The translations under genes were made by a program, and so were the position numbers. From positions 10,479 to 74,478 of the forward strand of contig PIYN01000014.1 in assembly GCA_003601775.1 (NCBI GenBank): a DNA stretch of 64,000 nt, read 5' to 3'. The notes under the pieces were generated by a model. The model was not told the DNA's origin, did no database searches, and was given only the letters and a program-made list of their open reading frames with translations. How positions within the stretch are numbered: the stretch's first letter is position 1; every line of letters starts with the position of its first letter. This document shows positions 41,909-61,940 of the stretch, one piece after another. Source of the stretch: Candidatus Bathyarchaeota archaeon (GTDB taxonomy: Archaea > Thermoproteota > Bathyarchaeia > TCS64 > PIYN01).

Positions 41909-42658
41909 TTGGGGGCCATGACGGAAGAAGAAGACGGCGATCTGCTAATTCTAATACCTGCCTATGATGAGCCCGAGGGACTAAAGATGGTCCTGGGAGA
42001 GATCATGGAGAACATCGACCCACATATCCTCGTGGTGAGCCGCCCCCCAGGCCATGTCCAAGGGAAGATCGCCGAGGGCTTCGGGGCCGTAGTCTTCGAC
42101 CAGTGGAGCAGGGGGAAGGGGGCGGCCCTGAAGGAGGCCTTGGACTATATCGAGAAGAACCATTATTCCCCCAAGTACGTAGCCCTGATAGACGCGGATT
42201 ACACCTACCCCGTGAGGTACATCGACGAGATGGTGGAGATCCTGAGGAAGAACCCCAAGGTGGGGATGGTCACGGGGAACCGCTTCCCCACCTGGATCAA
42301 GGGCTTCAGGGACACCCTCAAGGCCCTCCTAAACCCCTATTACATTGGGAATAGGATCCTCTCAGTGCTCCATAGGTTTCTTAACGGCGTGCGTATGAAG
42401 GATCCCTTCACCGGCCTCCGGACCATTAGATATGATCTGATCAGGGGCTGGAGGCCGAGGTCGAGAAGCTTTGATATCGAATGCGAACTCAACGATCTCA
42501 TATTGAATGAGAGAAGGTATGAGGTCGTTGAGATACCTATAGAGTACAGGGAGAGGGTTGGAAAGAAGAAGCTCGGGTTGAGGCATGGCTTTATCATCCT
42601 CCTCAGGATCTGCGCCCTGGCCCTGGATCGTCTCTTAGGGAAGAGGACTCGGAGATAG
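41909..42658 (+). CDS. GT2 family glycosyltransferase (dolichyl-phosphate sugar synthase-like, GT-A fold)
   Basis: 249 aa; LILIPAYDE...IDADYTYP (DxD) pattern of DPM1/DPG-synthase-like enzymes. Confidence 0.7.
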   Translation: MGAMTEEEDGDLLILIPAYDEPEGLKMVLGEIMENIDPHILVVSRPPGHVQGKIAEGFGAVVFDQWSRGKGAALKEALDYIEKNHYSPKYVALIDADYTYPVRYIDEMVEILRKNPKVGMVTGNRFPTWIKGFRDTLKALLNPYYIGNRILSVLHRFLNGVRMKDPFTGLRTIRYDLIRGWRPRSRSFDIECELNDLILNERRYEVVEIPIEYRERVGKKKLGLRHGFIILLRICALALDRLLGKRTRR

Positions 42659-44132: not shown

Positions 44133-44924
44133 ATGGAGAATTCTCCGGTGGTAGAGATGTTTGTGGAGACCCATGGACACCTGGTGGGGGTCAGAGGGGA
44201 GCGTGACCTCGATGCGGTGGTCAGAAGGGCTGAGGAGGCGGGCGTCGTCCTCATCCTCACGGCCGGGATAGACCTCCCCTCCTCCGTAAAGGCGGTTGAG
44301 GTCGCCAAGAGATATGAGACGGTGAAGGCCTGCGTGGGGATACACCCCTGGTACGCGGACGAGTACGATGAGGAGGCGGAGAGGAGGCTGAGGGAGCTGG
44401 CCGGGGAGAGGGAGGTCGTCGCCATAAGCGAGATCGGCCTCGACTTCTTTGGGAGGATGACCCACAGCTGGAGTTTCACCTCAGAGTACATAGAGGAGGA
44501 GGTCCAGTATAGGACCCTCCGGGGGCAGTTGGGGCTCGCGAGGGAGCGTGGGCTCCCCGTCATCGTCCATGACCGGGCGAAGGGGTTCGAGACGCTGGAG
44601 ATCTTGGAGGAAGAGGGCGTCTCTGAGATCGGGGGAGCCATCCACGGCTTCTCCAGGGACCTCGACTACGCAAGGAGGTGCATCGACCTCGGTGTCTACC
44701 TCTCCGTATCCGACCGGGCGCTATCCAGGCCGGAGAACGAGGGCTTGAGGGAGGCCGTGAAGGAGATCCCCTTGGAGTGGCTGCTGACGGAGACGGATAC
44801 GGGGAACCCGGAAGGGGTCGTGAAGGCGGCCGAGAGGATAGCCGAGCTGAAGGGGTTGACCACGGAGGAGGTCGGGGAGGCGACCACCTCCAACTTGAGG
44901 AGGCTCCTCAAGATCCCGGACTAA
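44133..44924 (+). CDS. tatD: TatD family metal-dependent hydrolase/DNase
   Basis: 263 aa; N-terminal VETHGHL metal-binding motif and the TatD TIM-barrel pattern (ISEIGLDF, VHDRA). Confidence 0.8.
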   Translation: MENSPVVEMFVETHGHLVGVRGERDLDAVVRRAEEAGVVLILTAGIDLPSSVKAVEVAKRYETVKACVGIHPWYADEYDEEAERRLRELAGEREVVAISEIGLDFFGRMTHSWSFTSEYIEEEVQYRTLRGQLGLARERGLPVIVHDRAKGFETLEILEEEGVSEIGGAIHGFSRDLDYARRCIDLGVYLSVSDRALSRPENEGLREAVKEIPLEWLLTETDTGNPEGVVKAAERIAELKGLTTEEVGEATTSNLRRLLKIPD

Positions 44925-45029
44925 CCTCCATCTTTTTCCTCAGGGTTGAGATGCCTCACGGCGCCTCGATGCAAGCCTATTTAAGGCGTCCCGTCACAGA
45001 AGTCTTGAGGATTAGAGGGGAGAGCTGAG

Positions 45030-45911
45030 TTGGGTGAGGAGTTCCTTAGGAGATACTACGAACTCAGTAGTGAGAAGGAGAGTTTCCTCTGCGTCGGCCT
45101 CGACCCTGTCCCTCCCTCTGTGCGGGATAGGTTCGTGATCCCGAGGCACCTCATCGAGGAGCACGGCCTCAGGGAGGGGGTGAGGCGCTTCTCTCTGGAG
45201 ATCGTCGAGGCCGTAGCGCCCTACACGCCGATGATCAAGGTGAACGCCTGGTACGTCCTCCCCCTCCTCCCCTTCGAGGAGGTGGGGGAGATCGTCGACG
45301 CCGTGAAGGAGGCAGGGTGCCTCGCCCTCCTCGATGCGAAGATCACCGATATCGGGAGCACGAATGCCGTGAGCCTGCACTGGATCGAGGAGATGGGCTT
45401 CGACGCCGTGACCCTCAGCCCCTTCCCCGGGTATCAGGGGGGGACCGATGTGGTCTATAGGTGGGCCGAGGACACGGGTAAGGGCGTCTTCGTCCTCTGC
45501 AGGATGTCCAACCCCGGGGCCCGGGACTACCAGTCGAGGAAGGTCGAAGAGGAGCCCCTTTACAGGCTCATCGCGAGGGACGCTGCCATGCACGGTGCGG
45601 ACGGCTTCGTCGTGGGGTGCACAGCCGAGGAGGAGTTGGGGGAGGTGAGGGAGATCATCGGGGAGGAGAGGCTCATCCTCGCCCCAGGACTCGGCCCCCA
45701 GGGAGGCAACCCAGAGACCGCCTTCAGGCTCGGCGCCAACAGGAGGGGGGAGGGATTGATCGTCTCGGCCTCCCGGTCCATCGACTACGCCTACACAGTC
45801 CTGGGCTGGCCCGAGGAGAGGTACGCGGAGGCCGCCGCGGAGCAGGCGAGGAGGCAGAGGGACCGTCTTAACAAGATCAGGCGGCTGGTCATGGGAGGGG
45901 AGAGAAGTTAG
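45030..45911 (+). CDS. pyrF: orotidine 5'-phosphate decarboxylase (type 2)
   Basis: LCVGLDP and DAKITDIGST motifs; 293 aa. Confidence 0.8.
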   Translation: MGEEFLRRYYELSSEKESFLCVGLDPVPPSVRDRFVIPRHLIEEHGLREGVRRFSLEIVEAVAPYTPMIKVNAWYVLPLLPFEEVGEIVDAVKEAGCLALLDAKITDIGSTNAVSLHWIEEMGFDAVTLSPFPGYQGGTDVVYRWAEDTGKGVFVLCRMSNPGARDYQSRKVEEEPLYRLIARDAAMHGADGFVVGCTAEEELGEVREIIGEERLILAPGLGPQGGNPETAFRLGANRRGEGLIVSASRSIDYAYTVLGWPEERYAEAAAEQARRQRDRLNKIRRLVMGGERS

Positions 45912-45968
45912 TCGCTTCCAACGCTCCTGACCTTACAATAACTTTAATATTCAGTTGTAGTAAGACTT

Positions 45969-46550
45969 TTGGATGTCGAGGGGTGTGCTTTGGAGGAGAG
46001 ACTCATAGAGGTGAGGTTCCACGGGCGGGGAGGGCAGGGGGCGTGGACCGCCTCCCAACTCCTCGCCCTTGGAGGGCTGAAGGAGGGGAAGCACGTCCAG
46101 AGCTTCCCCACCTTTGGGCCGGAGAGGGCGGGGGCGCCGATCCAGGCCTTCACCCGCATAAGCGACAGGCCTATAAACCTCCACTCGAGGGTCTATGAGC
46201 CGGACATCGTGGTGGTCCTAGATCCAACCCTACTGGGACCCGGGGTCGCCGAGGGGGTGAGCCGGGGGACCCTCCTTGTGGTCAACACCGGCGAGGGCCC
46301 CCAAGAGGTGAGGAAGGTGCTCGGCCTGAAGGAGAACGAGGTCTGGGTGGTCGACGCCACGGAGCTCGCCATGAGGATCCTGGGACGCCCCATCACGAAC
46401 ACGGCGGTCCTCGGGGCCCTCCTGAGGGCGAGGGAGGTCATAAGCCTCGAGTCACTGCTGGAGGCCGTGAGGGAGAGGTTCCCCGGGAGGGTTGGAGAGC
46501 TGAACGTGAAGCTCGTCCAAGAGGCCTATAGGGAGGCGAGGAATAGATGA
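45969..46550 (+). CDS. porG: 2-oxoacid:ferredoxin oxidoreductase gamma subunit (cluster 2)
   Basis: VRFHGRGGQGAW N-terminus; paralogue of 26863..27423. Confidence 0.85.
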   Translation: MDVEGCALEERLIEVRFHGRGGQGAWTASQLLALGGLKEGKHVQSFPTFGPERAGAPIQAFTRISDRPINLHSRVYEPDIVVVLDPTLLGPGVAEGVSRGTLLVVNTGEGPQEVRKVLGLKENEVWVVDATELAMRILGRPITNTAVLGALLRAREVISLESLLEAVRERFPGRVGELNVKLVQEAYREARNR

Positions 46551-46831
46551 CGGGACAGAAGAGCGCACCCGGATGGAGGGAGCTGCCGCATGGGGCCGTT
46601 CCCTATAAGTCGAGCAGGGAGTATAAAACGGGGGACTGGGGGGTCCTCAAGCCCAAGATCGACTTTGGGAGGTGCACGAAATGCACCCTCTGCCATTTCT
46701 ACTGCCCCGAGGGAGCTATAAGGATGAGGGGGGACGGGTACCCTGAGGTCGACTATGACTTCTGTAAGGGCTGCGGCATCTGCGCCGCCGAGTGCCCCGT
46801 CAAGTGCATCGAGATGGTGAGGAGGGGCTGA
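46547..46831 (+). CDS. porD: 2-oxoacid:ferredoxin oxidoreductase delta subunit (cluster 2)
   Basis: CTKCTLCHFYCP and CKGCGICAAECP ferredoxin motifs. Confidence 0.85.
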   Translation: MTGQKSAPGWRELPHGAVPYKSSREYKTGDWGVLKPKIDFGRCTKCTLCHFYCPEGAIRMRGDGYPEVDYDFCKGCGICAAECPVKCIEMVRRG

Positions 46832-46832
46832 G

Positions 46833-48053
46833 ATGACAGTGGTAGAGCAGAAATTATTGGGACTCAACGGGGACGAGGCCGTCGCCTACGCGATAAAGCA
46901 GGTCAACCCAGACGTCGTCGCGGCCTACCCCATCACGCCCCAGACGATCATCGTCGAGAGGTTCTCCGAGTACGTCGCCGATGGGGAGGTGGAGACGGAG
47001 TTCATCGCCGTCGAGTCGGAGCACAGCGCCCTCAGCACCTGCATAGGGGCCGAGGCCGCCGGAGGAAGGGCCTTCACCTGCACCGCCGCCAACGGCCTCG
47101 CCCTGATGTGGGAGATGACCTACATAGCCGCCTCCCTGAGGCTACCCATCGTCATGGCCGTGGTCAACAGGGCGCTGAGCGCCCCCATCAACATCCACAA
47201 CGACCACAGCGACTCCATGGGGGCGAGGGACAGTGGGTGGATACAGCTCTACTGCGAGAACAGCCAAGAGGCCTACGATACCGCCATCCAGGCCTGGAGG
47301 ATCGGGGAGCACCCGGAGGTCCAGCTCCCCGTGATGATCTGCCTCGACGGCTTCATCCTGAGCCACACGCTGGAGAACGTCCTGACCCTGCCAGACGAGG
47401 TCGTCAGGGAGTTCATCGGGGAGAGATCCTTCCCGAGGGTCCAGGGGCACCTGGGTGAGGCGGAGTTCAGGCTCGACCCGGAGCACCCCATCACCATGGG
47501 CCCCCTTGACCTCTACGACTTCTACTTCGAGCACAAGAGGCCACAGGTGGAGGCGATGAAGAGGGCGCTCCCAGTGATAGAGGAGGTAGGAAGGGAGTAT
47601 GGGCGGATCTCGGGGAGGACCTACAGCCTCCTCCACCCCTACAGGCTCGAGGACGCGGAGATCGCCGTCGTCGGCCTCGGCTCAACGATGGGGACGGCGA
47701 GGGTTGTGGTAGACCGGCTGAGGAGCCGAGGCGTCAAGGCCGGTCTCCTGAGGGTCAGGGCCTTCAGGCCCTTCCCCGCGCACGAGATCCTGAAGGCTCT
47801 CTCCCACGTCGAGGCTGTGGGGGTGCTGGACAGATGCGCCAGCTTCGGCGCCCTTGGGGGCCCCCTCTTCATGGAGGTGAGGAACGCCTTCTACGACTCT
47901 GCGGAGCGTCCCATCATCTCCGACTACATCTACGGACTCGGGGGGAGGGATATGTCCATGGAGATGCTCGAGGAGGTCTTCAAGAGCCTGGAGGAGGACA
48001 GGAGGGCGGGGAGGCCTCTGGAGCTCGTCAGATACATCGGGTTGAGGGAGTGA
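46833..48053 (+). CDS. porA: 2-oxoacid:ferredoxin oxidoreductase alpha subunit (cluster 2)
   Basis: 406 aa; AYPITPQTIIVERF N-terminal block. Confidence 0.85.
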   Translation: MTVVEQKLLGLNGDEAVAYAIKQVNPDVVAAYPITPQTIIVERFSEYVADGEVETEFIAVESEHSALSTCIGAEAAGGRAFTCTAANGLALMWEMTYIAASLRLPIVMAVVNRALSAPINIHNDHSDSMGARDSGWIQLYCENSQEAYDTAIQAWRIGEHPEVQLPVMICLDGFILSHTLENVLTLPDEVVREFIGERSFPRVQGHLGEAEFRLDPEHPITMGPLDLYDFYFEHKRPQVEAMKRALPVIEEVGREYGRISGRTYSLLHPYRLEDAEIAVVGLGSTMGTARVVVDRLRSRGVKAGLLRVRAFRPFPAHEILKALSHVEAVGVLDRCASFGALGGPLFMEVRNAFYDSAERPIISDYIYGLGGRDMSMEMLEEVFKSLEEDRRAGRPLELVRYIGLRE

Positions 48054-48054
48054 G

Positions 48055-49026
48055 GTGGGTGAGATGAGTCTGAGAGAGATGGCCAAGCAGCCCGACCTCC
48101 TGGCCCCTGGGCACAGGCTCTGCGCCGGGTGCGGGGAGGCCGTCACTGCGAGGCTCGTCCTCAAGGCCGTGAGGGGTCCGACGATCGTGACGGCGGCGAC
48201 AGGGTGCCTCGAGGTGGCGACGACCATCTTCCCCTACACCGCCTGGGACCTGCCCTGGATACACACCGCCTTCGAGAACGCCGCGGCGAACGCCAGCGGG
48301 ATAGAGGCCGCCTTCAGGGCCATGAAGAGGAAGGGGCGTGGGCCCCTGGCGAAGTACGAGCACATAGACGTCATCGCCTTCGCGGGTGACGGGGGGACCT
48401 ACGACATCGGCCTCCAGGCCCTCAGCGGGGCCCTTGAGCGGGGACACGACTTCGTCTACGTCCTCCTCGACAACGAGGCCTACATGAACACGGGGATCCA
48501 GAGGAGCGGGGGGACGCCTCGATGCGCGGCGACGACGACGAGCCCCGCGGGGAGGGTCATCCCAGGGAAGAGGGAGTGGAAGAAGCCCATAGATGAGATC
48601 GTCGTGGCCCATGAGATACCCTACGTCGCCACCGTGAGCGCCTCCTACCCCACTGACCTTATCCGGAAGATGCGATGCGCCCTGGAGGCCGAGGGACCCG
48701 CCTTCATCCATGCCTTCGTCCCCTGCCCCAGAGGGTGGCGATTCCCCTCTGAACAGACGATAGCCCTGGGACGCCTCGCCGTCCAAACCTGCCTCTTCCC
48801 CCTCTGGGAGTGCAGGCTGGAGGAGGGGAGGCCGAGGTACACGCTCTCGAGCCCCAGCCTCTCCATCGCAAAGAACCCGGAGAGGAAGAGGCCAATAGAG
48901 GAGTACCTCGAGAAACAGGGACGCTTCAGGCACCTCTTCAGGCCCGAGAGGAGGGACGACCTCATCAAGGAGATACAGGAGTGGGTCGACCTTAAGTGGG
49001 AGAGACTCCTGGAGAAGGCCCTCTAA
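48055..49026 (+). CDS. porB: 2-oxoacid:ferredoxin oxidoreductase beta subunit (TPP-binding, cluster 2)
   Basis: CAGCGEAV Fe-S cysteines and TPP motif GDGGTYDIG...NEAYMNTG. Confidence 0.85.
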   Translation: MGEMSLREMAKQPDLLAPGHRLCAGCGEAVTARLVLKAVRGPTIVTAATGCLEVATTIFPYTAWDLPWIHTAFENAAANASGIEAAFRAMKRKGRGPLAKYEHIDVIAFAGDGGTYDIGLQALSGALERGHDFVYVLLDNEAYMNTGIQRSGGTPRCAATTTSPAGRVIPGKREWKKPIDEIVVAHEIPYVATVSASYPTDLIRKMRCALEAEGPAFIHAFVPCPRGWRFPSEQTIALGRLAVQTCLFPLWECRLEEGRPRYTLSSPSLSIAKNPERKRPIEEYLEKQGRFRHLFRPERRDDLIKEIQEWVDLKWERLLEKAL

Positions 49027-49040
49027 CCCCCTTTTTTTAT
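49027..49040 (+). terminator. archaeal oligo-T terminator (CCCCC TTTTTTT) after the second POR operon
   Basis: C5-T7 run read directly after the porB stop. Confidence 0.5.
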
Positions 49041-49093
49041 CGCTTAACTTAAAGCCCCGGCGCCCGATTGTTTAACAGGGGAGGATCTCACTA

Positions 49094-49837
49094 ATGGATG
49101 AGCATAGATCTCTTAAGGAACTCATAGCCAGGAGGATCGCCGGGGAGATCGTCCTCTCCCCCAACCCCGGCCTCGCAATGAGGAAGTGGAGGACCCTCTT
49201 CGGGGTAACTCAGGTACAGATGGCCTCTGAGATGGGGCGCTCCCCCTCCGTGATCAGCGACTACGAGGCCGGGAGACGACGGTCTCCCGGCGCCGCCTTC
49301 ATCAGGAGGTTCGTGGAGGCCCTCATCGAGATCGATGAGAGGACGGGAGGCCACTACATCCAGAACCTCGCCAGGATGACCCTCGCCCCCAGCGACGCCT
49401 TCATCGATATCCGGGAGTTCACCATACCCGTGAAGGTGCGTGAGATCTGCGAGGCCGTAGAGGCGGATGTCCTCGTCGGTGAGGAAGAGATGGACCTCGA
49501 CATCTTCGGCTACACCATCATAGACAGCCTCAAGGCCATCCAGACCCTCTCAGGCCTCGACTTCTACAGGCTCTTCGGCTCCACCAGTGAGAGAGCCCTC
49601 ATCTTCACAGGGGTGACGAGGGGAAGATCACCGATGATCGCCATAAAGATCAGCCCCTTCAAGCCACGCCTCGTCGTGCTCCACGGCAAGATCGAGAAAG
49701 TAGACGACCTCGCCGTGATGCTCGCCAGACACGAGAACGTCCCCTTAGCCCTCTCGAAGAAGCCCTCGGTAGAGGAACTGGTGGACGCCCTTGATCGACT
49801 ATACAAGAGGGCACTATCTCAAACTGCAAAAAAATGA
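49094..49837 (+). CDS. archaeal XRE-type HTH transcriptional regulator with conserved C-terminal domain
   Basis: 247 aa; HTH_3-like segment LFGVTQVQMASEMGRSPSVISDYEAG followed by an about 170-aa domain. Confidence 0.6.
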   Translation: MDEHRSLKELIARRIAGEIVLSPNPGLAMRKWRTLFGVTQVQMASEMGRSPSVISDYEAGRRRSPGAAFIRRFVEALIEIDERTGGHYIQNLARMTLAPSDAFIDIREFTIPVKVREICEAVEADVLVGEEEMDLDIFGYTIIDSLKAIQTLSGLDFYRLFGSTSERALIFTGVTRGRSPMIAIKISPFKPRLVVLHGKIEKVDDLAVMLARHENVPLALSKKPSVEELVDALDRLYKRALSQTAKK

Positions 49838-50158
49838 ACCTCTCCTCATCTTATCCTTCCCTTTCTCATACCTGAACGGAGATCCTAAAAGGGTGACTGA
49901 GGGGATCAAGGAAGGTAATAAATCAAATCTAGAGATGGTCTGTAGAAGAACCATCAAATGAGGGATAGACCCCCTAAAGTCATGAGGCGCTCTGTCACCC
50001 TTAAACGATAGGTCAAGGATTTTATTTTAATTGAATATTTGAAATTTGAGAAGAATTCAACGATATAAGTCGAACTAAGAATTTAAATGGTTAAATTTAT
50101 ATATCAAACACCCTCCTTAAGTTAGGATTGATAGGTTAAATAAAATAGGTGGATCTGG

Positions 50159-50335
50159 ATGGGAGAGGAAGAGAAGGAGGACTATACAGTCCCTGTGTAC
50201 ATCGGCCTGAAACACTCAATCGTCGTCGAGTTGGACAATATCGCCGCCGAGTGGGGAACTACAGTGAGCAGGGCTTGTCAGAGGATCATAACAGAGTACG
50301 TGAAGAACTGGGTTAGCGAAAAGGAGAAGAAATAG
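50159..50335 (+). CDS. ribbon-helix-helix (CopG/Arc-like) small DNA-binding protein candidate (58 aa)
   Basis: Sub-threshold ORF in the AT-rich spacer: MGEEEKEDYTVPVYIGLKHSIVVELDNIAAEWGTTVSRACQRIITEYVKNWVSEKEKK, showing a beta-strand then two helices characteristic of RHH proteins. Confidence 0.4.
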   Translation: MGEEEKEDYTVPVYIGLKHSIVVELDNIAAEWGTTVSRACQRIITEYVKNWVSEKEKK

Positions 50336-50341
50336 CATCAC

Positions 50342-50551
50342 TCATCGAGGATCATCCCTTTTTGCCGTTGTTCCAAATCGAAGTTTATAATACATCACAA
50401 GGATGAAGACGCCCACAAAAGAGAGAATTAAAGTGTATAATGCGACCATTGCGGGGCCGACTTCTTCAATCAATCTTCCCAAAAAATGGGCCGCGAAGGT
50501 GATAAGTACCATCAAAAGAGTTGCGATTATCATCTGTTTACGCGTTAACAT
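50342..50551 (-). CDS. small membrane protein (2 predicted TM helices, 69 aa)
   Basis: Hydrophobic segments IIATLLMVLITFAAHFL and ALYTLILSFVGVFILVMYY; AT-rich codon usage. Confidence 0.35.
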   Translation of the reverse strand: MLTRKQMIIATLLMVLITFAAHFLGRLIEEVGPAMVALYTLILSFVGVFILVMYYKLRFGTTAKRDDPR

Positions 50552-50624
50552 AGGGTCCCTTTGTTAGTGGACTTAACGGCCATATATTAAAATATTGATG
50601 AAATATATTGTTTCTTGACGGGGA

Positions 50625-52082
50625 TTGGATAGGATGTTGAGTTTACGATATTACATTGATACGGAACTTCAAGAAGAGGCCTTTGGGGCTTTGTTTGATT
50701 TCATCATGAAGTACTATCTCTACCGAAATCCCCAGTATTATAAAGATATCAGGAGGACGCGGGTGGGGGATGTCGAGGTATTGGAGTTCACGGCTATCCC
50801 GAGGCATAAGAAGTGGTCTATGGAGGTCGAGGTGCGGGGAGTTAAGCCTCTCGAGGTGAGGATGAGGCCCAGCAACAGGCTCGTGCCTATGACCGTCATT
50901 AATAGGATAAGGACCCATCTATTGATGGGGGTCATCACCTTCGAGGAGAGCGTCGCGAGGGGCAGAACTTACTTTGCATGGGTTGGTAGGGGGAAGGCGA
51001 TCGACGAGAGGGAGCTGAGTCGAGGCAAGAAGATGATATATGCGCTCTTCACGGGGAACATGATGCTCTCTTACCTCACCTTCATCTTAGCAAGTTCCCT
51101 ATTCCTCCCGGTCTTCAAATTTTACATCCCAATAGCCTTCCTACTCTTTCAATTCGTATTAATGATTTTGTCTCACAGGATACTCATACTATCCGGAGAC
51201 TGGATAGTAGACCAGGAGAACTCCACCGTTCACATCCTAAAGTTTCACATCCCCACGAGGGTCTTGATGGAGATCCCCGCCGAGATAGGGATCAGGAGCT
51301 TGATGGAGATAAGGGAGGAGATCTACAGGAGGACCCTCAAGGTCGGGAGGAGCATAGATCGCCAGACGGCTCTTGAGGTCTTCTCAATGTATGGGATAGA
51401 CGTCGTCCCTGAGGAGACCGAGGCCAAGGCCGTGAACATCTATGAGTTGACTAAGTCTGCTGTGGAGAGGTTTCACCTCCCGATGCCGAGGTTAGCGGTG
51501 GTGAACACCGTCGTACCAAACGCCCTCTCGGCAGGTCCCAGCCCGCGGTTAGGCACGATCCTCATATCCACAGGCCTATTGGCTAGACTCGATGAGGATG
51601 AGTTACTCGGGATTCTGGGACATGAACTCAGTCACCTCAAGAACAGGGACTCCCTCGTTCTATTCATATTCTCATCGATCGCCTATCTTCTCCAGCTACG
51701 CCTATTTCCACTCCTTCTCTGGTTCTTCTGGTTCACCTTCTTCCCCTACCTCTATATCTACCTATTCATGGCCCTGATCATGGGGGGCGTCTACTTCGTA
51801 TCTAAGATCCTTGAGGCCAGGTGTGACCTCGAGTCGGCGATCTACGTAGGGAAGCCCGATGCCCTCGCAAGGGCCCTGAAGAAGCTGGGCTTTCAGAAAT
51901 TCAGATTTGAGAAGATATCCGGCATAAAGATCCAGGACTGGTTCCGATTAGAGCCTCATCCTCCAATCAGTTTCAGGATCTCCCGTCTGGAGGCCCTGGA
52001 GTCGCCGGGGAAGATCAGGTCCCCCCTCATCCAATCCATGAGGGACTGCCTCTCAGGTTTCTTCTCCTCGCTTAGAATATAA
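50625..52082 (+). CDS. membrane zinc metallopeptidase, M48 (HtpX/Ste24-like) with about 170-aa N-terminal extra domain
   Basis: HExxH in LGILGHELSHLKNRD flanked by hydrophobic helices; lower GC and A/T-ending codons compared with neighbours. Confidence 0.7.
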   Translation: MDRMLSLRYYIDTELQEEAFGALFDFIMKYYLYRNPQYYKDIRRTRVGDVEVLEFTAIPRHKKWSMEVEVRGVKPLEVRMRPSNRLVPMTVINRIRTHLLMGVITFEESVARGRTYFAWVGRGKAIDERELSRGKKMIYALFTGNMMLSYLTFILASSLFLPVFKFYIPIAFLLFQFVLMILSHRILILSGDWIVDQENSTVHILKFHIPTRVLMEIPAEIGIRSLMEIREEIYRRTLKVGRSIDRQTALEVFSMYGIDVVPEETEAKAVNIYELTKSAVERFHLPMPRLAVVNTVVPNALSAGPSPRLGTILISTGLLARLDEDELLGILGHELSHLKNRDSLVLFIFSSIAYLLQLRLFPLLLWFFWFTFFPYLYIYLFMALIMGGVYFVSKILEARCDLESAIYVGKPDALARALKKLGFQKFRFEKISGIKIQDWFRLEPHPPISFRISRLEALESPGKIRSPLIQSMRDCLSGFFSSLRI

Positions 52083-52183
52083 TCTTCTACTGTTCCCTGG
52101 GGTCCATCTCCCAGTTCCTGTAGGCTATGATCGATTCTCTTAAAAGATTAAAATAGTTAGGGACGTTATATTATCGAGTAGAT

Positions 52184-52497
52184 ATGGCTGAGAGGTATAG
52201 GGTGAAGATAACGGTCTTGAAGAGGTCGAGGCCGGAGGAGGTCTTCAGGGAGTCGCCTATCAAGGGTGGGCCGACCCGGGCCTGTGAGGGCTTTAGGAGT
52301 TCATCGTCGATGAGTCGGGGAGGATGCCGGAGGGTTTCTGCTCCTGGGCCTGGGATGATATATCCAAGGTGGTGAACGTCCTCCGCTTCGGCGGGAACTT
52401 CCCCTGGTTCGAGGAAGAAGGCATCTCCATAAACTGCTGCACCGATGGGCTTAGACCAGTCATCTTCAAGATAGAGCGCATCCAAGCGGGGGATTAA
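52184..52497 (+). pseudogene. TIGR04076-like small protein gene interrupted by a frameshift near 52295
   Basis: N-terminal part MAERYRVKITVLKRSRPEEVFRESPIKGGPTRACEGF (track ORF 52184..52375) continues in another frame as EFIVDESGRMPEGFCSWAWDDISKVVNVLRFGGNFPWFEEEGISINCCTDGLRPVIFKIERIQAGD, ending at 52497. Confidence 0.45.
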
Positions 52498-52531: not shown

Positions 52532-53671
52532 TTGAGAGTCCTCGTCTTAGGCTGCGGTAATATAGGGTCCGTCATCGCAAGGGACTTCGCCGAGTCCATG
52601 GAGGAGTCTCAGATAGTCGTCGCTGATAGGGAAGAAGAGAGGGCCAAGAAGGTAGCTTCGAGCATAGAGGATGCAGCCTGGATCACTGTAGACGCGACGG
52701 ACTACGCTGGATTAGTGGAAGTTCTCAGGGGATTCGACTTAGTCATCGGGGCGCTCCCCGGCGACTACGGCTACCAGGCCCTCAAGGCCGCCATAGAGGC
52801 GGGAGTCGATATGGTGGATGTCTCCTTCACCCCCGAGGACCCCCTTGAATTGGACAGGGCGGCAAAGGAGGCGGGGGTCACCATCATCCCCGACTGCGGT
52901 GTAGCCCCCGGCCTCTCCAATATGCTGGTGGGGTACGCCTCAGCCAAGCTCGACCGGGTTCTGGAGGCCCACATCTTGGTCGGGGGTCTTCCAGAGCATC
53001 CCGTCCCTCCACTGGGGTACACTGTCACTTGGTCGGCGGAGGGACTCATCGACGAGTACATGAGGGATGTACGCATCGTCGAGGGTGGGCGCCTCACCAT
53101 CGTCCCCGCCCTGAGTGGATTGGAGGAGATCGACTTCCCCGGCGTGGGGAGGCTCGAGGCCTTCTACACCGATGGCCTCCGGACACTTCTCCACACCCTG
53201 AGGGGGGTGGAAAGTATGTGGGAGAAGACCCTCAGGTATCCGGGTCACGTGGAGAAGATAAGGCTCCTCAAGGCACTGGGCTTCTTCGACGAGGAGCCTG
53301 TGACCGTCGGGAGGGTTGAGGTCTCTCCCCGCCTCGTGACCGCCAGGCTCTTGGAGAGGAGCCTGAGGAGGCCTGAGGTCGGCGATCTCCTCGTGATGAG
53401 GGTCGAGGTGGCCGGTGAGAGGGGGGGTGAGGAGGTTCGGTTTAGGTATTACCTCCTTGATCGATACGATAGGGAGAGGGGAGTGACGGCGATGGCGAGG
53501 ACCACGGCATACACAGCATCCATCGTCGCTGGTAAGTTGGCACGGAGCATCATCAAGGAGAGAGGGATAGTCCCGCCGGAGAGGCTCGGCATGGACGAGG
53601 GCCTCTTCAAGGAGATCCTATCGGCTCTCAGGGATAGAGGGGTAAGGGTCGAGGAGTTCCATGTAGAATAG
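52532..53671 (+). CDS. saccharopine dehydrogenase family NAD(P)-dependent oxidoreductase (paralogue 1)
   Basis: N-terminal Rossmann motif VLVLGCGNIGSV and the Sacchrp_dh C-terminal domain; 379 aa; TTG start. Confidence 0.75.
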   Translation: MRVLVLGCGNIGSVIARDFAESMEESQIVVADREEERAKKVASSIEDAAWITVDATDYAGLVEVLRGFDLVIGALPGDYGYQALKAAIEAGVDMVDVSFTPEDPLELDRAAKEAGVTIIPDCGVAPGLSNMLVGYASAKLDRVLEAHILVGGLPEHPVPPLGYTVTWSAEGLIDEYMRDVRIVEGGRLTIVPALSGLEEIDFPGVGRLEAFYTDGLRTLLHTLRGVESMWEKTLRYPGHVEKIRLLKALGFFDEEPVTVGRVEVSPRLVTARLLERSLRRPEVGDLLVMRVEVAGERGGEEVRFRYYLLDRYDRERGVTAMARTTAYTASIVAGKLARSIIKERGIVPPERLGMDEGLFKEILSALRDRGVRVEEFHVE

Positions 53672-53877
53672 GCTGACGGACGGCACCTCCGCGTTTCCAT
53701 GAGTAGAGGGTAAGTAAACGTAACTTTTTTCTAAATACTCGCCCCATTCAACTTAGATAGCGAGGGTGGGGGTTATAGAGGAGAGAGAAGTCTTCTTATG
53801 TCCCTTCTGCGGTGCCCCCTTCAGGGAAGTTATCCCCGCTGGCGTGACTCAGGTGAAATCACCCCGACGTCCTCGCC

Positions 53878-54264
53878 GTGGGGTTATGCACGAGCTGTGG
53901 GAGGAGCTACTGCGCCCGTTGCCTCCATATCATGAGGGTTACTGAGAAGACTTCTGGGCAGCTTCTATACTCCTACATCTGTCCGAGTTGCCTTGAGGAG
54001 ATCAACGCCAAGCGTGTCAGAAACTACCGTGTATGGGGCCTCCTATATCTGGCCTTCGGCTTCTTCCTCCTCCTATTTCTCGGGTTTAAGAGCGAGGAGG
54101 CCGCAGGCCTATTGGTGTGTAGTTTCATCTGTTGGGTGTTTGGGGTTGGATTCCTGGGTTATAGTGAGTACAGGAAGAGGTATCCCTGGGAGGCGCCTGA
54201 GACCGTCTACGAAAGGAACCTGAGGAAACAGGCGTTACAGAAGATGGACGTTGAGGAGGTTTAA
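53878..54264 (+). CDS. zinc-ribbon membrane protein (CTSCG..CARC / CPSC followed by two TM helices)
   Basis: 128 aa. An upstream overlapping frame (from about 53766) encodes another CPFCG zinc-knuckle, so the gene may be longer and frameshifted. Confidence 0.4.
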   Translation: MGLCTSCGRSYCARCLHIMRVTEKTSGQLLYSYICPSCLEEINAKRVRNYRVWGLLYLAFGFFLLLFLGFKSEEAAGLLVCSFICWVFGVGFLGYSEYRKRYPWEAPETVYERNLRKQALQKMDVEEV

Positions 54265-54330
54265 AGGGAGATATTAAAGTCTCCCGAGTTCTGGTCCAGG
54301 GAACGCCTGGAGAGGAAGATAAAGGGATAC

Positions 54331-55032
54331 ATGCTCGAACGGGGGCTGAGCCGCGAGGAGGCGATCAGGGAGATAGCGCTCGAGGTGGGGCTGCCTAAGC
54401 CTCCGCCGAAGCCTCCCTCTCCTGAGGAGATCGTGGCGGCGGAGAGGCGTGCGAGATTCTATGGAAAGATTACGAGGGTGGCCGCCCTCCTCCTCGGGGT
54501 CGCTACCATACTGGGAATAGCCGGCGCGGTATACACTCATGGGGTGGAGATCGGCACCGCTGAGTGCAATTGGGACGCCCTGGGTCCAGTCAGCCCGGGT
54601 ATCCACGTGATGATAACGCCCAGTGATCCGAGGACGATGAATAAAAGAGGGTTTGGGAGATACTTCGTCAATCAGGGGTCGTCAGATAACTTCGTGAGCC
54701 TGGTTATATGTGGAGGAGGTCTCTGCGATATCGAGTTCAAGGGAGCCACCCTCCACCCATTTATGAAAAAGATCAAGGTAAAAGTCACGTTCTATACCTG
54801 CGGGCGCTGTCACTCATTCCTTTTTGGTGGCTCAGCCTGCGGAGAACCCCACCGTGAGACAGTTACGGTGTTCTTGGGGAAGCTACCCCCAGGCAGTTAC
54901 CATGTGGTCGTCGATATCTACTATGGGGGCGCTGTTTATTGGGTGGAATTCAACGGGGAATGGTATCGACAGACGGAGTCGGGGACGTCTGGGGGGAGGG
55001 AGACCCTCCATGCATTCTTCACTATATACTAA
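54331..55032 (+). CDS. membrane-anchored Cys-rich protein (1 TM then 8-Cys extracytoplasmic domain)
   Basis: 233 aa; TM segment VAALLLGVATILGIAGAV; Cys pattern CNWD...CGGGLC...CGRCHSFLFGGSACGEPH. Confidence 0.4.
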   Translation: MLERGLSREEAIREIALEVGLPKPPPKPPSPEEIVAAERRARFYGKITRVAALLLGVATILGIAGAVYTHGVEIGTAECNWDALGPVSPGIHVMITPSDPRTMNKRGFGRYFVNQGSSDNFVSLVICGGGLCDIEFKGATLHPFMKKIKVKVTFYTCGRCHSFLFGGSACGEPHRETVTVFLGKLPPGSYHVVVDIYYGGAVYWVEFNGEWYRQTESGTSGGRETLHAFFTIY

Positions 55033-59110: not shown

Positions 59111-60226
59111 CTACCTCAGGGCGAGCTCGTACCGCAGGTCCTCAGGGTAGGGATAGACCAACACCTTCTCGGCGGGGAAGATTAGGTAGACCCTCTCCCC
59201 CTCCCCGAAGAACCTCCCCAACCTCGTGGGCTGCTTCACCTCCACGAGGTCCCCGTTGTCCAACTCGACCCTATACCTTATGATCTTCCCGAGGAAGGCC
59301 GCCCTGATCACACGCCCCGGCAGGGCGTTCAACCCCTCCGCCTTCCCCTCTTCGAGGAGTATGTTCTCACGCCTCACCCCGATGACGACCCTCGACCCGG
59401 CCCTCAGGTTCGATCCACCGGCCTCGATGAGTAGGTCCCCCCTCAGCCTCACGAGGGATCTCTCCCCGCTCCTCTCGATGACCCCCTCGAGGAAGTTCGT
59501 CTCCCCCACGAAGTTCGCGACGAAGATGGAGGCGGGCCGCTCATAGAGCTCCATGGGCGTGCCGACCTGGAGGACCCTCCCCCTCCTGAAGACTGCGATC
59601 CTGTCCGCTATCGCCATCGCCTCCTCCTGGTCGTGGGTCACGTGGATCGCGGTGAGCCCCCGGCCCTTCACCAAGCTCCTGAGGGTGAAGCGGAACCTCT
59701 CCCGCGTCTCAGGGTCCAGGGAGCCGAGGGGCTCGTCCAAGAGGAGGAGCCTCGACCCCTTCGCGAGGGCGCGGGCGATGCTGCACCTCTGGAGCTCCGG
59801 GGCGCCCAGCTCCTCAGGGTACCTATCGGCGACCTCGTTCAGTCCGGCGACCTCCAGGGCCTGGTAGACCCTCCTCTCGATCTCCTCCTCGTCCAGCCCC
59901 TGGATCATCAGGCTGTAGGCGACGTTCTCGTAGACGGTCATGAAGGGGAAGATCTCGAAGTGCTGGAAGACGAGCCCGATGTTCCTGTCCTCCGGGGGGA
60001 TTCCGGAGACGTCCCTCCCATCGATGTAGACCCTCCCCTCATCGGGCTTCGTCAACCCTGCTATGATGCGCAGGGTCGTGGTCTTCCCGCAGCCCGAGGG
60101 GCCGAGGAGGACGAAGTACTCCCCGTCCCTCACGTGGAGGTTCAGACCCTCCACTGCTATGACCCTGCCATACCGCTTCGTCACGTTCACGAGCCTCACA
60201 TCGGGCATCTCTTCACTCCCACCCAA
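59111..60226 (-). CDS. ABC transporter ATP-binding protein with C-terminal TOBE domain, copy 1
   Basis: Walker A GPSGCGKTT, signature elements and Walker B LLLDEPLGSLD; paralogous to the adjacent ATPase. Confidence 0.85.
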   Translation of the reverse strand: MGGSEEMPDVRLVNVTKRYGRVIAVEGLNLHVRDGEYFVLLGPSGCGKTTTLRIIAGLTKPDEGRVYIDGRDVSGIPPEDRNIGLVFQHFEIFPFMTVYENVAYSLMIQGLDEEEIERRVYQALEVAGLNEVADRYPEELGAPELQRCSIARALAKGSRLLLLDEPLGSLDPETRERFRFTLRSLVKGRGLTAIHVTHDQEEAMAIADRIAVFRRGRVLQVGTPMELYERPASIFVANFVGETNFLEGVIERSGERSLVRLRGDLLIEAGGSNLRAGSRVVIGVRRENILLEEGKAEGLNALPGRVIRAAFLGKIIRYRVELDNGDLVEVKQPTRLGRFFGEGERVYLIFPAEKVLVYPYPEDLRYELALR

Positions 60227-61940
60227 GGACGTACCTGAGGATGAGGAGGAGGGTGAGGGAGATGGCGATGAGGAGGACGCAGGCGAAGGCCGCCGCCGGC
60301 AGGGCGAGGGACTCGACCCACTGGACGATGAGGACCGGGACCGTCCTCGAGAGGCCCATGACGACGATGGTCGCCCCCGTCTCCCCCAGGCTCCTCGTGA
60401 AGGCCATGATCGCCGCCGCGAGGATCCCCTCCCTCATGGAGGGGAGGATGACAGTCCTGAAGACCGTCAGGGGCGGAGCCCCGAGGGTCCTCGCGGCCTC
60501 CTCAAGGTGGGGGTCGAGGCCCTCAACGACGGCGGTGAGGGGGCGGACGACGTAGGGGTAGGTGAAGCCGATGTGGACGAGGACGACCATCCAGAAGCCG
60601 GGGCCGAGGAGGTTGAGGCCCTTCGTTCCCCAGAAGAGGAAGAAGGAGAAGCCGAGGGCGGAGGTGGGGACCGTCAGGGGGATATCCACCAGGGCGTCGA
60701 GGAGGCCCCTGAGTCGGCCGAGGTTCTTCCTCACGAGCAGGAAGGCCATGGGGAGGCCCGCCAGGATGTTGACGCCTGTCGCGAGGGCCGCGACCTTGAA
60801 GGAGGTGATGATGCTGGATTGAAGGGCGGGCCACTTCTTGTCAGGGGCCAGGAAGACCTGGTAGAAGGCGCCGAGGTTGGGGTTGCCTGTGTAGGGGCTC
60901 CCTCCCCACCATCTGATGAGGTAGGTGAAGATGAAGGAGGAGGGGATGAGGATGAGGAGGACGAAGAAGGAGAAGGTCATGAGGTCCCGGAGGTGCCTCT
61001 GAGCCCGCCCGCTGAGGAGCCGCTCAGCCCTCGGCCAGGCCTCCTTGATGGGGAGGCCGAACCTCTCGGCCGAGAAGCGGAGTAGGGCGAGGAGGAAGGC
61101 TGAGATGGAGACAAGGATCATGGAGAGGAAGGCGGCGGGGGGGATCATGAGCAGCTGACGGTACTCGACAACAAGGAGGGGGGCCGTGTAGAAGGCCCCC
61201 GCGACGATGAGGGTGGCCCCAGTCTCCCCCAGGCTCCTCGTGAAGCAGAGGATGGAGCCGGCCAGGAGGCCGCTCTTTATCAGCGGCGCCGTCACCGTCC
61301 TGAAGACAGTGAAGGGGGGTGCCCCGAGGGTCCGGGCAGCGTGCTCGAGGGTCTGATCCACCGACTCTATGATCTCCTTCAGCGACCTCACGATGTAAGG
61401 GTAGGAGAAGGCGACGTGGGTGAGGATGATGAGGAGGGGGCCCCGGGAGAACAGCCCGCCCTCGAGGCCGAGAAGGCCGCCGATGCCGTCGATGCTCCCC
61501 CAGAAGAGGTAGAGGGAGAAGCCCAGGGCCGCCGTCGGGACGGCCATGGGGAGGTCGACGAGAGTGTCGACGAGGCGTTTCCCCCTGAAATCGTACCGGG
61601 CGAGGATGAGGGCCATGGGGAGCCCTATGAGGACGTCTATAAAGGTGACCACGGCCGCGATCTCGAAGGACCTGAGGAGGCCCCTCTGGATCATGTTCCA
61701 TCTGAGGGCCCCCTGCCCGATCTGGGCGAAGAAGGGATCCGCGAAGACGGTCTGGTAGACCTCACCCCAGCTCCTAAGGACCAAGAGGAAGATGGATAGG
61801 GGAGGGCCGACAACGAAGATGAGGAGGAAGAGGAGGACTAAGGCATCCCTCAGGAGGCTGAACCCCCTGCTCGAGAGCCTCCTCTCAACCCGCACCAAGA
61901 GCCTTCTCCAGCTCATCCCCCAGGCCTCGATATCAGCCAT
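60213..61940 (-). CDS. ABC transporter fused double permease (two tandem 6-TM domains)
   Basis: 575 aa with two repeats each carrying the EAA-like loop (...ARTLGAPPFTVFRTV... and ...ARTLGAPPLTVFRTV...). Confidence 0.8.
   Translation of the reverse strand: MADIEAWGMSWRRLLVRVERRLSSRGFSLLRDALVLLFLLIFVVGPPLSIFLLVLRSWGEVYQTVFADPFFAQIGQGALRWNMIQRGLLRSFEIAAVVTFIDVLIGLPMALILARYDFRGKRLVDTLVDLPMAVPTAALGFSLYLFWGSIDGIGGLLGLEGGLFSRGPLLIILTHVAFSYPYIVRSLKEIIESVDQTLEHAARTLGAPPFTVFRTVTAPLIKSGLLAGSILCFTRSLGETGATLIVAGAFYTAPLLVVEYRQLLMIPPAAFLSMILVSISAFLLALLRFSAERFGLPIKEAWPRAERLLSGRAQRHLRDLMTFSFFVLLILIPSSFIFTYLIRWWGGSPYTGNPNLGAFYQVFLAPDKKWPALQSSIITSFKVAALATGVNILAGLPMAFLLVRKNLGRLRGLLDALVDIPLTVPTSALGFSFFLFWGTKGLNLLGPGFWMVVLVHIGFTYPYVVRPLTAVVEGLDPHLEEAARTLGAPPLTVFRTVILPSMREGILAAAIMAFTRSLGETGATIVVMGLSRTVPVLIVQWVESLALPAAAFACVLLIAISLTLLLILRYVLGWE

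Follow-up and report, generated by a model that had tools for sequence, protein, structure and literature searches.

The low-GC stretch that follows an XRE-type regulator gene in the 64-kb window (the whole stretch of Bathyarchaeia DNA that was analysed) appears, on balance, to be the extreme part of an accessory-like, non-core patch of about 5 kb which was reshuffled or imported at some time in the past, and not a recent mobile insertion. As far as donor and timing can be inferred, the source would probably be lower-GC members of the same class, and the patch would have yet to equilibrate with a host lineage whose GC content is unusually high. Its most extreme part would contain one solid gene, which encodes an M48 protease, and two doubtful ones, ORFs of 58 and 69 amino acids located in AT-rich spacers that carry putative promoters.

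The mean GC content of the window is 61.2%, and the lowest of its 1-kb bins, at 50001-51000, has 43.4% GC. In a scan of the whole window, the GC content computed over 500 bp falls below 50% solely at 49541-52231; it is 31.5% at 50000-50199 when 200-bp windows are used, and reaches a minimum of 24.7% within 49790-50243 when 150-bp windows are used. Codon usage, evaluated against a reference set of 44 genes (GC3 0.861 +/- 0.038), deviates in the same region, with a GC3 of 0.695 in the 58-aa ORF (z = -4.4; CAI-like z = -4.0), 0.429 in the 69-aa ORF (z = -11.5; CAI-like z = -9.1) and 0.700 in the M48 gene (z = -4.3; CAI-like z = -4.2). Six adjacent ORFs are deviant relative to the reference genes, with GC3 z values from -2.7 to -11.5, which is the kind of deviant composition that marks a genomic island, and outside the patch a single glycosyltransferase is the only other window gene with a GC3 deficit. 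The sliding-window and codon statistics are thus not uniform, and the contrast is statistically strong. The initial annotation had described a single extended low-GC stretch ending with the M48 gene; the unique 500-bp trough and the strong GC3 deviations bear this out, but the anomaly is wider than claimed, extending from about 49.8 to about 55.0 kb, with a right edge which is not sharp because a saccharopine-dehydrogenase-like gene and a 444-aa orphan further downstream are deviant too. The accompanying mention of oligo-T terminators needs correction: no oligo-T run follows either the XRE gene or the M48 gene; a T7 run is found after porB, and a T5 run 24 nt past the 58-aa ORF.

The gene directly downstream of the M48 gene is a TIGR04076-family gene (52184..52497, forward strand), which had been overlooked when the saccharopine-dehydrogenase-like gene was named as the right-hand neighbour. 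The latter comes next, at 52532-53671 (forward strand; GC3 0.76, z = -2.7), and is followed by the 444-aa zinc-ribbon/TM orphan at 53766-55032 (forward strand; GC3 0.66-0.68, z about -5). In the window the TIGR04076 gene is frameshifted by a 10-nt deletion after 52294, which is peculiar to the window in a comparison with 10 conspecific contigs, and an intact 107-aa orthologue (L002) reaches 84.7 bits, the cutoff being 33. The gene forms part of the wider zone of low GC3. The 444-aa orphan has lost about 70 nt in the window and carries a TAT>TAA change there, which together disrupt it, and both of these genes are decaying in the window strain.

The same composition could be produced without any transfer if the genes were native and subject to weak expression or relaxed codon selection, with hydrophobic composition and AT-rich archaeal promoter spacers accounting for the remainder of the dip and with the position after XRE being simply a rearrangement breakpoint; this explanation is considered unlikely, if well short of negligible. 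The GC dips within the M48 gene fall at TM segments, and other intergenic spacers of the window reach 36-41% GC too, both of which are in keeping with native genes, as is the lack of mobility signatures. Hydrophobic composition alone is, however, not the cause of the dip, because an ABC permease of 575 aa elsewhere in the window (60213-61940), which serves as a membrane-protein control, keeps a GC3 of 0.91, and the native reading must also contend with a GC3 deficit (z from about -4 to -11) that is shared by five or six neighbouring genes of unrelated function. The M48 gene itself provides evidence in both directions. HtpX has been reported in all Bathyarchaeia MAGs (PMC8407382). The M48/HtpX gene is a core gene of the class, and in other genomes its GC3 equals or falls slightly short of the neighbouring values (0.51 versus 0.53-0.63 in L012, and 0.50 versus 0.45-0.68 in L013), as would be expected of native genes; against this, the window M48 is an outlier on a long branch, with a mean identity of 37.6% compared to 54% among the other family members, and a sister lineage carries another low-GC orphan set in the same slot. 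The low-GC state must be older than the species, because the closest relative of the window M48 (L021, 85% aa identity, located on a 1.2-kb contig from Logan run SRR14241346 without genomic context) also has a GC3 of 0.65. A donor lineage for the M48 gene was not found, every M48 relative coming from the same class, and wholly vertical descent with lagging GC or weak codon selection may also account for the composition.

The left boundary of the segment is formed by the gene for the XRE-type HTH regulator (49094..49837, forward strand; 247 aa; Pfam HTH_31/HTH_3; GC3 0.79), which is the final gene of an OMPdc-porGDAB-XRE block and lies outside the low-GC patch. Dozens of GTDB species conserve this block, its XRE homologues show graded identity from 97% to 60% across Bathyarchaeia, and the segment begins exactly where the block ends. 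The segment is present with the same arrangement in all 14 of the 14 conspecific contigs, at 97-99.8% nucleotide identity; these contigs occur in hydrothermal sediments of Guaymas or Pescadero. It does not follow XRE in the relatives (71-82% XRE identity) or in about 60 GTDB species, where everything downstream is different: three low-GC orphans come after XRE in the sister lineage L016, L107 has an HD gene, L019 has DUF1177-FmdE, and L018 and L105 have CBS directly. When these post-XRE genes were searched for with tblastn, none was found anywhere in the 64-kb window. The low-GC orphan sets in the post-XRE slot differ between two related species. As for the locus in a sister species, a scan for M48 in the genome contigs of a collection from which this species is absent gave no match, and a scan of metagenome contigs, using an alignment of the window and P0002, returned conspecific contigs only.

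The post-XRE segment is therefore missing at the equivalent position in every relative examined, a result which is compatible with either acquisition or rearrangement. The horizontal acquisition that had been suggested from composition is in keeping with the compositional contrast and with the absence of the segment from relatives, but it lacks the signs of a mobile element and may represent an old transfer within the class. A bolder proposal, in which the post-XRE slot is a recurrent site of capture of low-GC foreign DNA in high-GC hydrothermal Bathyarchaeia and an RHH-like 58-aa protein with an operator-like GGTTAAAT regulates a divergent, xenologous M48, is judged improbable.

Features associated with mobility are lacking at several levels. 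No integrase, transposase or other mobility gene is present among the ORFs at 49-56 kb, the window contains no tRNA, and the proposed examination for flanking repeats and att sites yielded just short chance-level repeats and no att sites. The search against PHROGs gave a weak match only, to an M48-like family of unknown function. A viral origin was considered and rejected on the basis of that weak match, the lack of an IMG/VR relative of the 58-aa ORF, and the one viral match of the 69-aa ORF, which is weak, covers 33 TM residues and was judged spurious; a defence system was likewise rejected, with no PADLOC matches. The segment resembles a genomic islet or integration hot spot in its deviant composition, its site at a block boundary, the varying cargo in each relative, its orphans and the decaying pseudogenes beside it, but differs in having no integrase, tRNA, att site, direct repeats or strain-level presence/absence polymorphism.

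These results bear directly on the suggestion that an RHH regulator and a membrane peptidase form a small mobile or stress module. In its most explicit form, this would be an acquired module in which the M48 protease is under the control of an RHH repressor, or processes it, in the style of BlaI/BlaR1 or ImmR/ImmA, with the 2-TM protein as an accessory. The strong compositional deviation, the location at a synteny breakpoint, the adjacency of the three ORFs, the repeated GGTTAAAT in the promoter of the 58-aa ORF, which is a candidate operator, and the “M56 family” names given to some members at NCBI can all be read in its favour, and the juxtaposition of a small putative DNA-binding ORF with a membrane or zinc metalloprotease is reminiscent of BlaR1/MecR1-BlaI/MecI, ImmA/ImmR and IrrE/DdrO. 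The protease, however, scores only 19.1 bits against the cutoff of 31 for Pfam Peptidase M56 (PF05569), and its structure model has no sensor domain, in contrast to the extracellular sensor domain of BlaR1/MecR1; the 58-aa ORF, a putative RHH protein without a match to an RHH model or structure and without a homologue outside the species, is not a winged helix of the BlaI type. The distant M48 homologues examined have unrelated housekeeping surroundings in which no RHH neighbour was called, so the pairing is not conserved in other genomes examined, and the arrangement, which is devoid of mobility hallmarks, is fixed among the conspecific strains. The module is accordingly regarded as quite improbable, and nothing ties either small ORF functionally to the protease.

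The one solid gene of the segment (50634..52082, forward strand) encodes a long-form HtpX-like M48 zinc metalloprotease of 482 aa, or 485 aa if translation were to begin at TTG 50625; ATG 50634 is probably the true start, and 482 aa is the length in most of the conspecific contig calls. The assignment to an HtpX/Ste24-like M48 peptidase with a HELSH motif is confirmed by a Pfam PF01435 score of 71.4 bits (cutoff 20.3; residues 271-458) and by the presence of HELSH at residues 333-337 (485-aa numbering). In a family alignment of 37 sequences, no variation is seen at H333, E334 or E397 and next to none at H337, E397 being the downstream Glu ligand. Using the same numbering, the protein consists of an N-terminal alpha/beta domain at approximately 1-130, two TM helices, an insert of about 75 aa and the HELSH catalytic domain, after which there are two long hydrophobic helices and then the Glu ligand (FxEARxDLES), so that the catalytic fold is embedded between hydrophobic helices. 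A cytoplasmic orientation is predicted for both the HExxH...E site and the N-terminal domain, which are anchored by 2 + 2 hydrophobic helices. No Pfam model covers the N-terminal domain, whose fold is TBP/KA1/Bet-v-1-like and which may be a lid that binds a substrate, a lipid or a regulator. It had been described as an unusual domain of 170 aa, but its soluble part spans about 130 aa, and such a domain is standard in a Bathyarchaeia-wide family, the homologues from Bathyarchaeia and Thermoproteota aligning over 98-100% of their length with the N-terminal domain included.

With the membrane quality-control protease HtpX (M48B), the window M48 shares the HExxH motif and downstream Glu ligand, a PF01435 score above cutoff, two N-terminal TM helices and two hydrophobic helices past the motif, but it is about 190 residues longer, TM1 being preceded by the extra cytoplasmic domain (about 130 aa) and TM2 being separated from the catalytic core by the insert (about 75 aa). 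In Ste24p/ZMPSTE24 (M48A), seven TM helices build a closed chamber, and the substrates processed are prenylated. The window M48 differs from it in having approximately four hydrophobic helices and 16-21% identity, and no CAAX pathway is implied. All eight of the NCBIfam HtpX equivalog models score far below their cutoffs (best 74.3 bits versus 341), and the window M48 is therefore best treated as a member of an HtpX-related subfamily and not as an equivalog. NCBI labels some members of the family “M56 family”. By analogy with HtpX, the most likely function of the protease is the degradation of misfolded or damaged membrane proteins. The architecture of about 480 aa points more securely to an uncharacterised, Bathyarchaeia-wide protease subfamily than the post-XRE data point to a capture site.

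The spacer between the XRE gene and the 58-aa ORF (49838..50158) is, as had been stated, 320 bp in length and very AT-rich, its GC content dropping to 25-31%. Its distal half contains a consensus archaeal TATA box, TTTATATA, at 50096-50103, and two copies of GGTTAAAT occur in it, at 50089 and 50134; TTTAWATA occurs 7 times in the window compared to an expected count of 0.17, and GGTTAAAT 4 times compared to 0.19. An AGGTGG Shine-Dalgarno-like motif lies immediately 5' of ATG 50159. A scan for bacterial-type promoters and terminators gave results at chance level, these models not being applicable to archaea. Other roles for the spacer were considered and rejected: an ncRNA (no Rfam match at the gathering threshold or at E<=1, and folding z values of -0.55 and +0.79, which indicate no excess structure), a replication origin or repeat element (direct and inverted repeats of note are lacking), and remnants of the ancestral neighbours CBS, FBPase, TopoI, S-Me-THD, HD and DUF1177 (no tblastn match in the spacer or the window). 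The spacer shows no similarity to the post-XRE spacers of the relatives.

The 58-aa ORF (50159..50335, forward strand) is a species-restricted orphan whose protein is identical in 14 conspecific contigs, the sole substitution being synonymous, and its GC content follows a coding-like order over codon positions (GC3, at 0.69, > GC1 > GC2). It is probably expressed, as judged from the consensus TATA box and the Shine-Dalgarno-like motif. The ORF is present as the initial annotation described it, but the RHH assignment finds no support from profiles, structures or homologues. A word-indexed collection of 5.8 billion proteins contains no true homologue, and the matches returned by an exhaustive phmmer search of 1.84 billion cluster representatives, short stretches in giant repeat proteins, were rejected as spurious. 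No RHH or other family was found in Pfam (to E<=10) or NCBIfam (to E<=0.1), nor was there any match in PHROGs or PADLOC or a relative in IMG/VR; phmmer against the PDB gave designed helical-repeat proteins only and no natural RHH protein, and Foldseek found no structure at E<=0.001 for the model. The resemblance to the CopG/Arc/MetJ type of RHH protein is one seen by eye, in the hydrophobic alternation of VPVYIGL, a helix, G-T-T, a second helix and a fitting size. An AF2 single-sequence monomer model (pLDDT 79) has helices at 10-31 and 38-57 and no N-terminal strand, although an RHH strand may need the dimer. The protein is thus predicted to be a helix-turn-helix hairpin with an RHH-like pattern, a putative RHH, and it might serve as a small DNA-binding protein or a helical-hairpin protein.

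The opposite-strand ORF of 69 aa (50342..50551, reverse strand) with its two hydrophobic helices is likewise present as described, convergent with the 58-aa ORF, from which it is separated by 6 nt between stops, and divergent from the M48 gene. It is, on sequence evidence, a species-restricted orphan, and its status as a genuine gene is uncertain: it is called by some annotators and not by others, its family matches are all sub-threshold, and its one substitution among strains is nonsynonymous (R65S). The two small ORFs might alternatively constitute a toxin-antitoxin-like or antisense-regulated pair, a membrane toxin with a DNA-binding antitoxin, unrelated to the protease. The convergent arrangement, the basic ends that flank the helices of the 69-aa product, the placement of the T5 run 3' of the 58-aa ORF within the 3'-terminal part of the 69-aa ORF, and the orphan status of both in an AT-rich patch would suit such a pair, but TA, PADLOC and Pfam families gave no match to either ORF, the GC3 of the 69-aa ORF (0.43) carries no coding-like signal, and comparative support is absent, which makes this the least credible of the explanations, at very long odds. 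The divergent spacer between the 69-aa ORF and the M48 gene (50552..50633; 36-41% GC) contains TATA-like boxes, TTAAAATA, about 40 nt 5' of ATG 50634, at a spacing like the other TATA-to-start distances of the window, and these may act as a promoter.

Taken as an old accessory-like patch, the compositional trough in this archaeal MAG comprises a lineage-typical protease and orphan ORFs and no mobile module, and its significance is mainly one of annotation housekeeping; the “RHH” label of the 58-aa ORF in particular should not be passed on. Where the OMPdc-por-XRE block ends, the genome behaves like a hot spot of gene turnover. Bathyarchaeia MAGs have been reported to have 31-53% GC (PMC8407382), and the loci of the relatives have 48-54% GC; the clade of the window, at 61% GC, lies far above the reported range of the class and is of potential use in studies of GC evolution and amelioration in uncultured archaea. 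The long-form M48 family is conserved across Bathyarchaeia, is annotated just as “M48/HtpX” and has no characterised member, and its N-terminal domain could couple the sensing of lipids or other ligands to membrane proteolysis.

The low-GC zone between about 49.8 and 55.0 kb departs from the rest of the window (mean GC 61.2%), and computed GC, GC3 and CAI-like statistics bear out the extended low-GC stretch with deviant codon use that the initial annotation had seen by eye. The lowest of the 64 1-kb bins is 50001-51000 (43.4% GC), the minimum is 31.5% at 200-bp resolution (50000-50199) and 24.7% at 150-bp resolution, and across the whole window the 500-bp GC falls below 50% at 49541-52231 only, the remaining low-GC places being isolated spacers of about 200 bp each. 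Scored against 44 reference genes (GC3 0.861 +/- 0.038), the 58-aa ORF (50159-50335, plus strand) has z values of -4.4 for GC3 and -4.0 for a CAI-like index, the 69-aa ORF (50342-50551, minus strand) has values of -11.5 and -9.1, and the gene for the M48 zinc metalloprotease (50634-52082, plus strand) has values of -4.3 and -4.2. Membrane-protein composition does not explain the deficit of the M48 region, because a 575-aa ABC permease in the window, used as a control, has a GC3 of 0.91. While the low-GC core stands, its right edge had been placed too early, at 52170: the GC3 deficit runs on through the Sacchrp_dh gene at 52532-53671 (GC3 z -2.7) and through 53766-55032, where a 444-aa orphan has a z of about -5, and the second Sacchrp_dh gene (GC3 0.84) is the first beyond it. 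The oligo-T terminators ascribed to the flanking genes were found neither after XRE, the gene for a 247-aa HTH regulator (49094-49837, plus strand), nor after M48; instead, porB is followed by a T7 run, and the 58-aa ORF, at a distance of 24 nt, by a T5 run. Outside the zone, GC3 is clearly low in one further gene of the window, a family-2 glycosyltransferase gene at 41909-42658 (GC3 0.75), which ranks last of the reference genes in CAI-like value.

Exact copies of the 58-aa, 69-aa and M48 proteins are encoded by a number of Candidatus Bathyarchaeota MAGs and metagenome contigs. All conspecific contigs (97.4-99.8% nucleotide identity to the window) have the order por-XRE-58aa-(69aa)-M48-TIGR04076-Sacchrp_dh-444aa-Sacchrp_dh, with no presence/absence polymorphism of the segment among these strains. 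The gene next after M48 is not Sacchrp_dh, as had been supposed, but an overlooked TIGR04076-family gene (52184-52497), whose unbroken 107-aa orthologue reaches 84.7 bits (cutoff 33); it is intact in 10 of 10 conspecific contigs, and a 10-nt deletion after 52294, private to the window, breaks it into two ORFs. In the window the 444-aa zinc-ribbon/TM orphan has lost about 70 nt at 53855, and at 54264 its TAT has become TAA; elsewhere it is intact in the loci L003 and L004, split in L002 and 418 aa long in L007. Both genes are decaying in the window's strain, and the orphan appears to be a fast-decaying accessory gene of the low-GC3 zone. Intraspecific changes in the small ORFs (one synonymous in the 58-aa ORF, one nonsynonymous in the 69-aa ORF) are too few for a selection test.

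The AT-rich segment starts exactly at the 3' end of XRE, the last gene of a block, TatD-OMPdecase-porG-porD-porA-porB-XRE (44133-49837), whose order is kept across dozens of Bathyarchaeia species (loci L016-L071), which suggests a functional link between the XRE/HTH protein and pyruvate:ferredoxin oxidoreductase or pyrF. Relatives of XRE are graded in identity (97, 82, 76, 75, 73, 71, down to 60%), and their contigs keep the upstream TatD-OMPdc-(porGDAB)-XRE genes. What follows XRE differs by lineage: three minus-strand orphans, then S-Me-THD, CBS ... FBPase and TopoI in L016 (XRE 82%); an HD gene, then S-Me-THD in L107 (76%); CBS directly in L105 (75%) and L018 (73%); and DUF1177, FmdE ... 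CBS and FBPase in L019 (71%). About 60 more GTDB Bathyarchaeia species keep the OMPdc-por-XRE block, and none has the window's downstream genes within 10 kb of it; none of the relatives' post-XRE genes occurs anywhere in the window. The segment is thus absent after XRE in relatives, but there the whole downstream content differs; the XRE 3' end is therefore a recurrent breakpoint or gene-turnover site. The L016 orphans (190, 285 and 154 aa; L016:9784-11729) occupy the same slot as the AT-rich segment and have GC3 values of 0.47, 0.34 and 0.65 compared to about 0.75 in adjoining genes; the 154-aa orphan has a weak HTH match, and none has a Pfam, PHROG or PADLOC assignment. The spacers downstream of XRE at L018:~3130-3300 and L019:~7450-7620 share 174 nt at 80% identity despite different next genes. 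Nothing in these two loci reaches Rfam gathering thresholds, and the shared stretch may be an unannotated small gene or ncRNA; the window has no counterpart.

The assignment of the 482-aa protease to the M48 (HtpX/Ste24-like) peptidases is solid (Pfam PF01435, 71.4 bits against a cutoff of 20.3), and scores against the NCBIfam HtpX equivalogs are far under their cutoffs. A query of 5.8 billion proteins returned 392 matches; nearly all of the best 120 are about 470-490 aa long, with 96-100% query coverage and 35-42% identity for the full-length matches (P0002, truncated to 389 aa and with 79% coverage, stands apart), and their sources, where named, are Bathyarchaeota/Bathyarchaeia/Thermoproteota. 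In a 37-sequence alignment H333, E334, E397 (485-aa ORF numbering) and a WxxxxPHPP motif are invariant, and the N-terminal region is conserved together with the catalytic core, T13, E14, W64, P88 and a YFAW motif being among its nearly invariant features. The 170-aa N-terminal domain, initially thought unusual, is therefore the family norm, and may serve to bind a substrate, a lipid or a regulator. HtpX has been reported "across all Ca. Bathyarchaeia MAGs" (PMC8407382). Within this uncharacterised subfamily of long-form HtpX-like proteins, which spans the Bathyarchaeia, the window's protein is nothing out of the ordinary; by analogy with HtpX, we infer a putative role as a cytoplasm-facing membrane-protein quality-control protease.

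The ribbon-helix-helix (RHH) identity proposed for the 58-aa ORF fits the sequence by eye, which is compatible with beta-alpha-turn-alpha, but no profile, homology or structure search supports it. Neither Pfam nor NCBIfam gives a match at E<=0.1, and Pfam gives none even when the threshold is relaxed to E<=10; the database search for homologues returned only the ORF itself; exhaustive phmmer against 1.84 billion representatives found only short stretches in giant repeat proteins; and phmmer against the PDB found only designed helical-repeat proteins, which have an "AAELGTTVEEA" helix-turn-helix hairpin in common with the ORF, the individual stretches being insignificant. From the single sequence AF2 predicts a hairpin of two helices (pLDDT 79), for which Foldseek finds nothing similar at E<=0.001; the strand of an RHH might form in the dimer only. 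The ORF is favoured as a real gene because it has a perfect TTTAWATA box (50096) 56 nt upstream, an AGGTGG motif just before its ATG, and codon-position GC in the order GC3 > GC1 > GC2. This archaeal TATA consensus occurs 7 times in the window (2585, 5477, 19343, 25069, 50096, 55072 and 63168) against 0.17 expected by chance, and most copies compared with ORF starts lie about 25-56 nt upstream of the start codon (about 100 nt for 5477; 63168 is unassigned), so that these positions could help transcription-unit annotation in the MAG. A further feature in favour of the 58-aa ORF is the octamer GGTTAAAT, of which one copy (50089-50096) stands before and another (50134-50141, 45 nt away) after its TATA box and presumed transcription start. 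The octamer occurs 4 times in the window (0.19 expected) and, speculatively, may be an operator or BRE-like element. The 69-aa ORF does have the two hydrophobic helices of the membrane mini-protein described, but its status as a gene is uncertain: its GC3 of 0.43 is no enrichment, family searches gave no match, gene callers are inconsistent, and the one weak viral match covers a 33-residue TM segment.

The suggestion that an RHH regulator and the peptidase form a mobile or stress module finds no support in gene neighbourhoods. The three distant M48 homologues inspected on long contigs all lie amid unrelated housekeeping genes (RIO kinase/LSM/NrdD in L012, purine-synthesis genes in L013, MCM/GINS/RFC in L014), and no small regulator is called beside any of them; since the pairing of small ORF and M48 is confined to one species, nothing supports it as a functional unit. 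Hallmarks of mobile elements are also absent: there is no tRNA, no integrase in the ORF/profile survey, no phage or defence family and no Rfam element, the check for flanking repeats found no significant ones, and the AT-rich spacer has no excess RNA structure.

Bathyarchaeia MAGs are reported at 31-53% GC (PMC8407382), and the window's lineage is unusually GC-rich for its class (61% GC, GC3 about 0.86); the relatives' loci nearest by XRE identity have only 48-54% GC, a sign that GC rose recently and in this lineage specifically. Strictly vertical descent, with composition lagging behind, is possible. The window's M48 is an outlier: its identity to other family members averages 37.6%, whereas these share 54% with one another, and its sole closer relative (85% amino acid identity, on a 1.2-kb contig) has a GC3 of 0.65. 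Post-XRE turnover, the outlying M48 with its GC3 0.65 relative, the GC-rich host and the decaying genes fit together if the patch is non-core DNA that would have been imported or reshuffled before the species split from its sister, probably from lower-GC members of the same class. That the patch was long ago acquired from within the class, or rearranged, at a hot spot is plausible but not proven. The main points of interest are the unannotated N-terminal domain of the M48 family and the hot spot where the por-XRE block ends.
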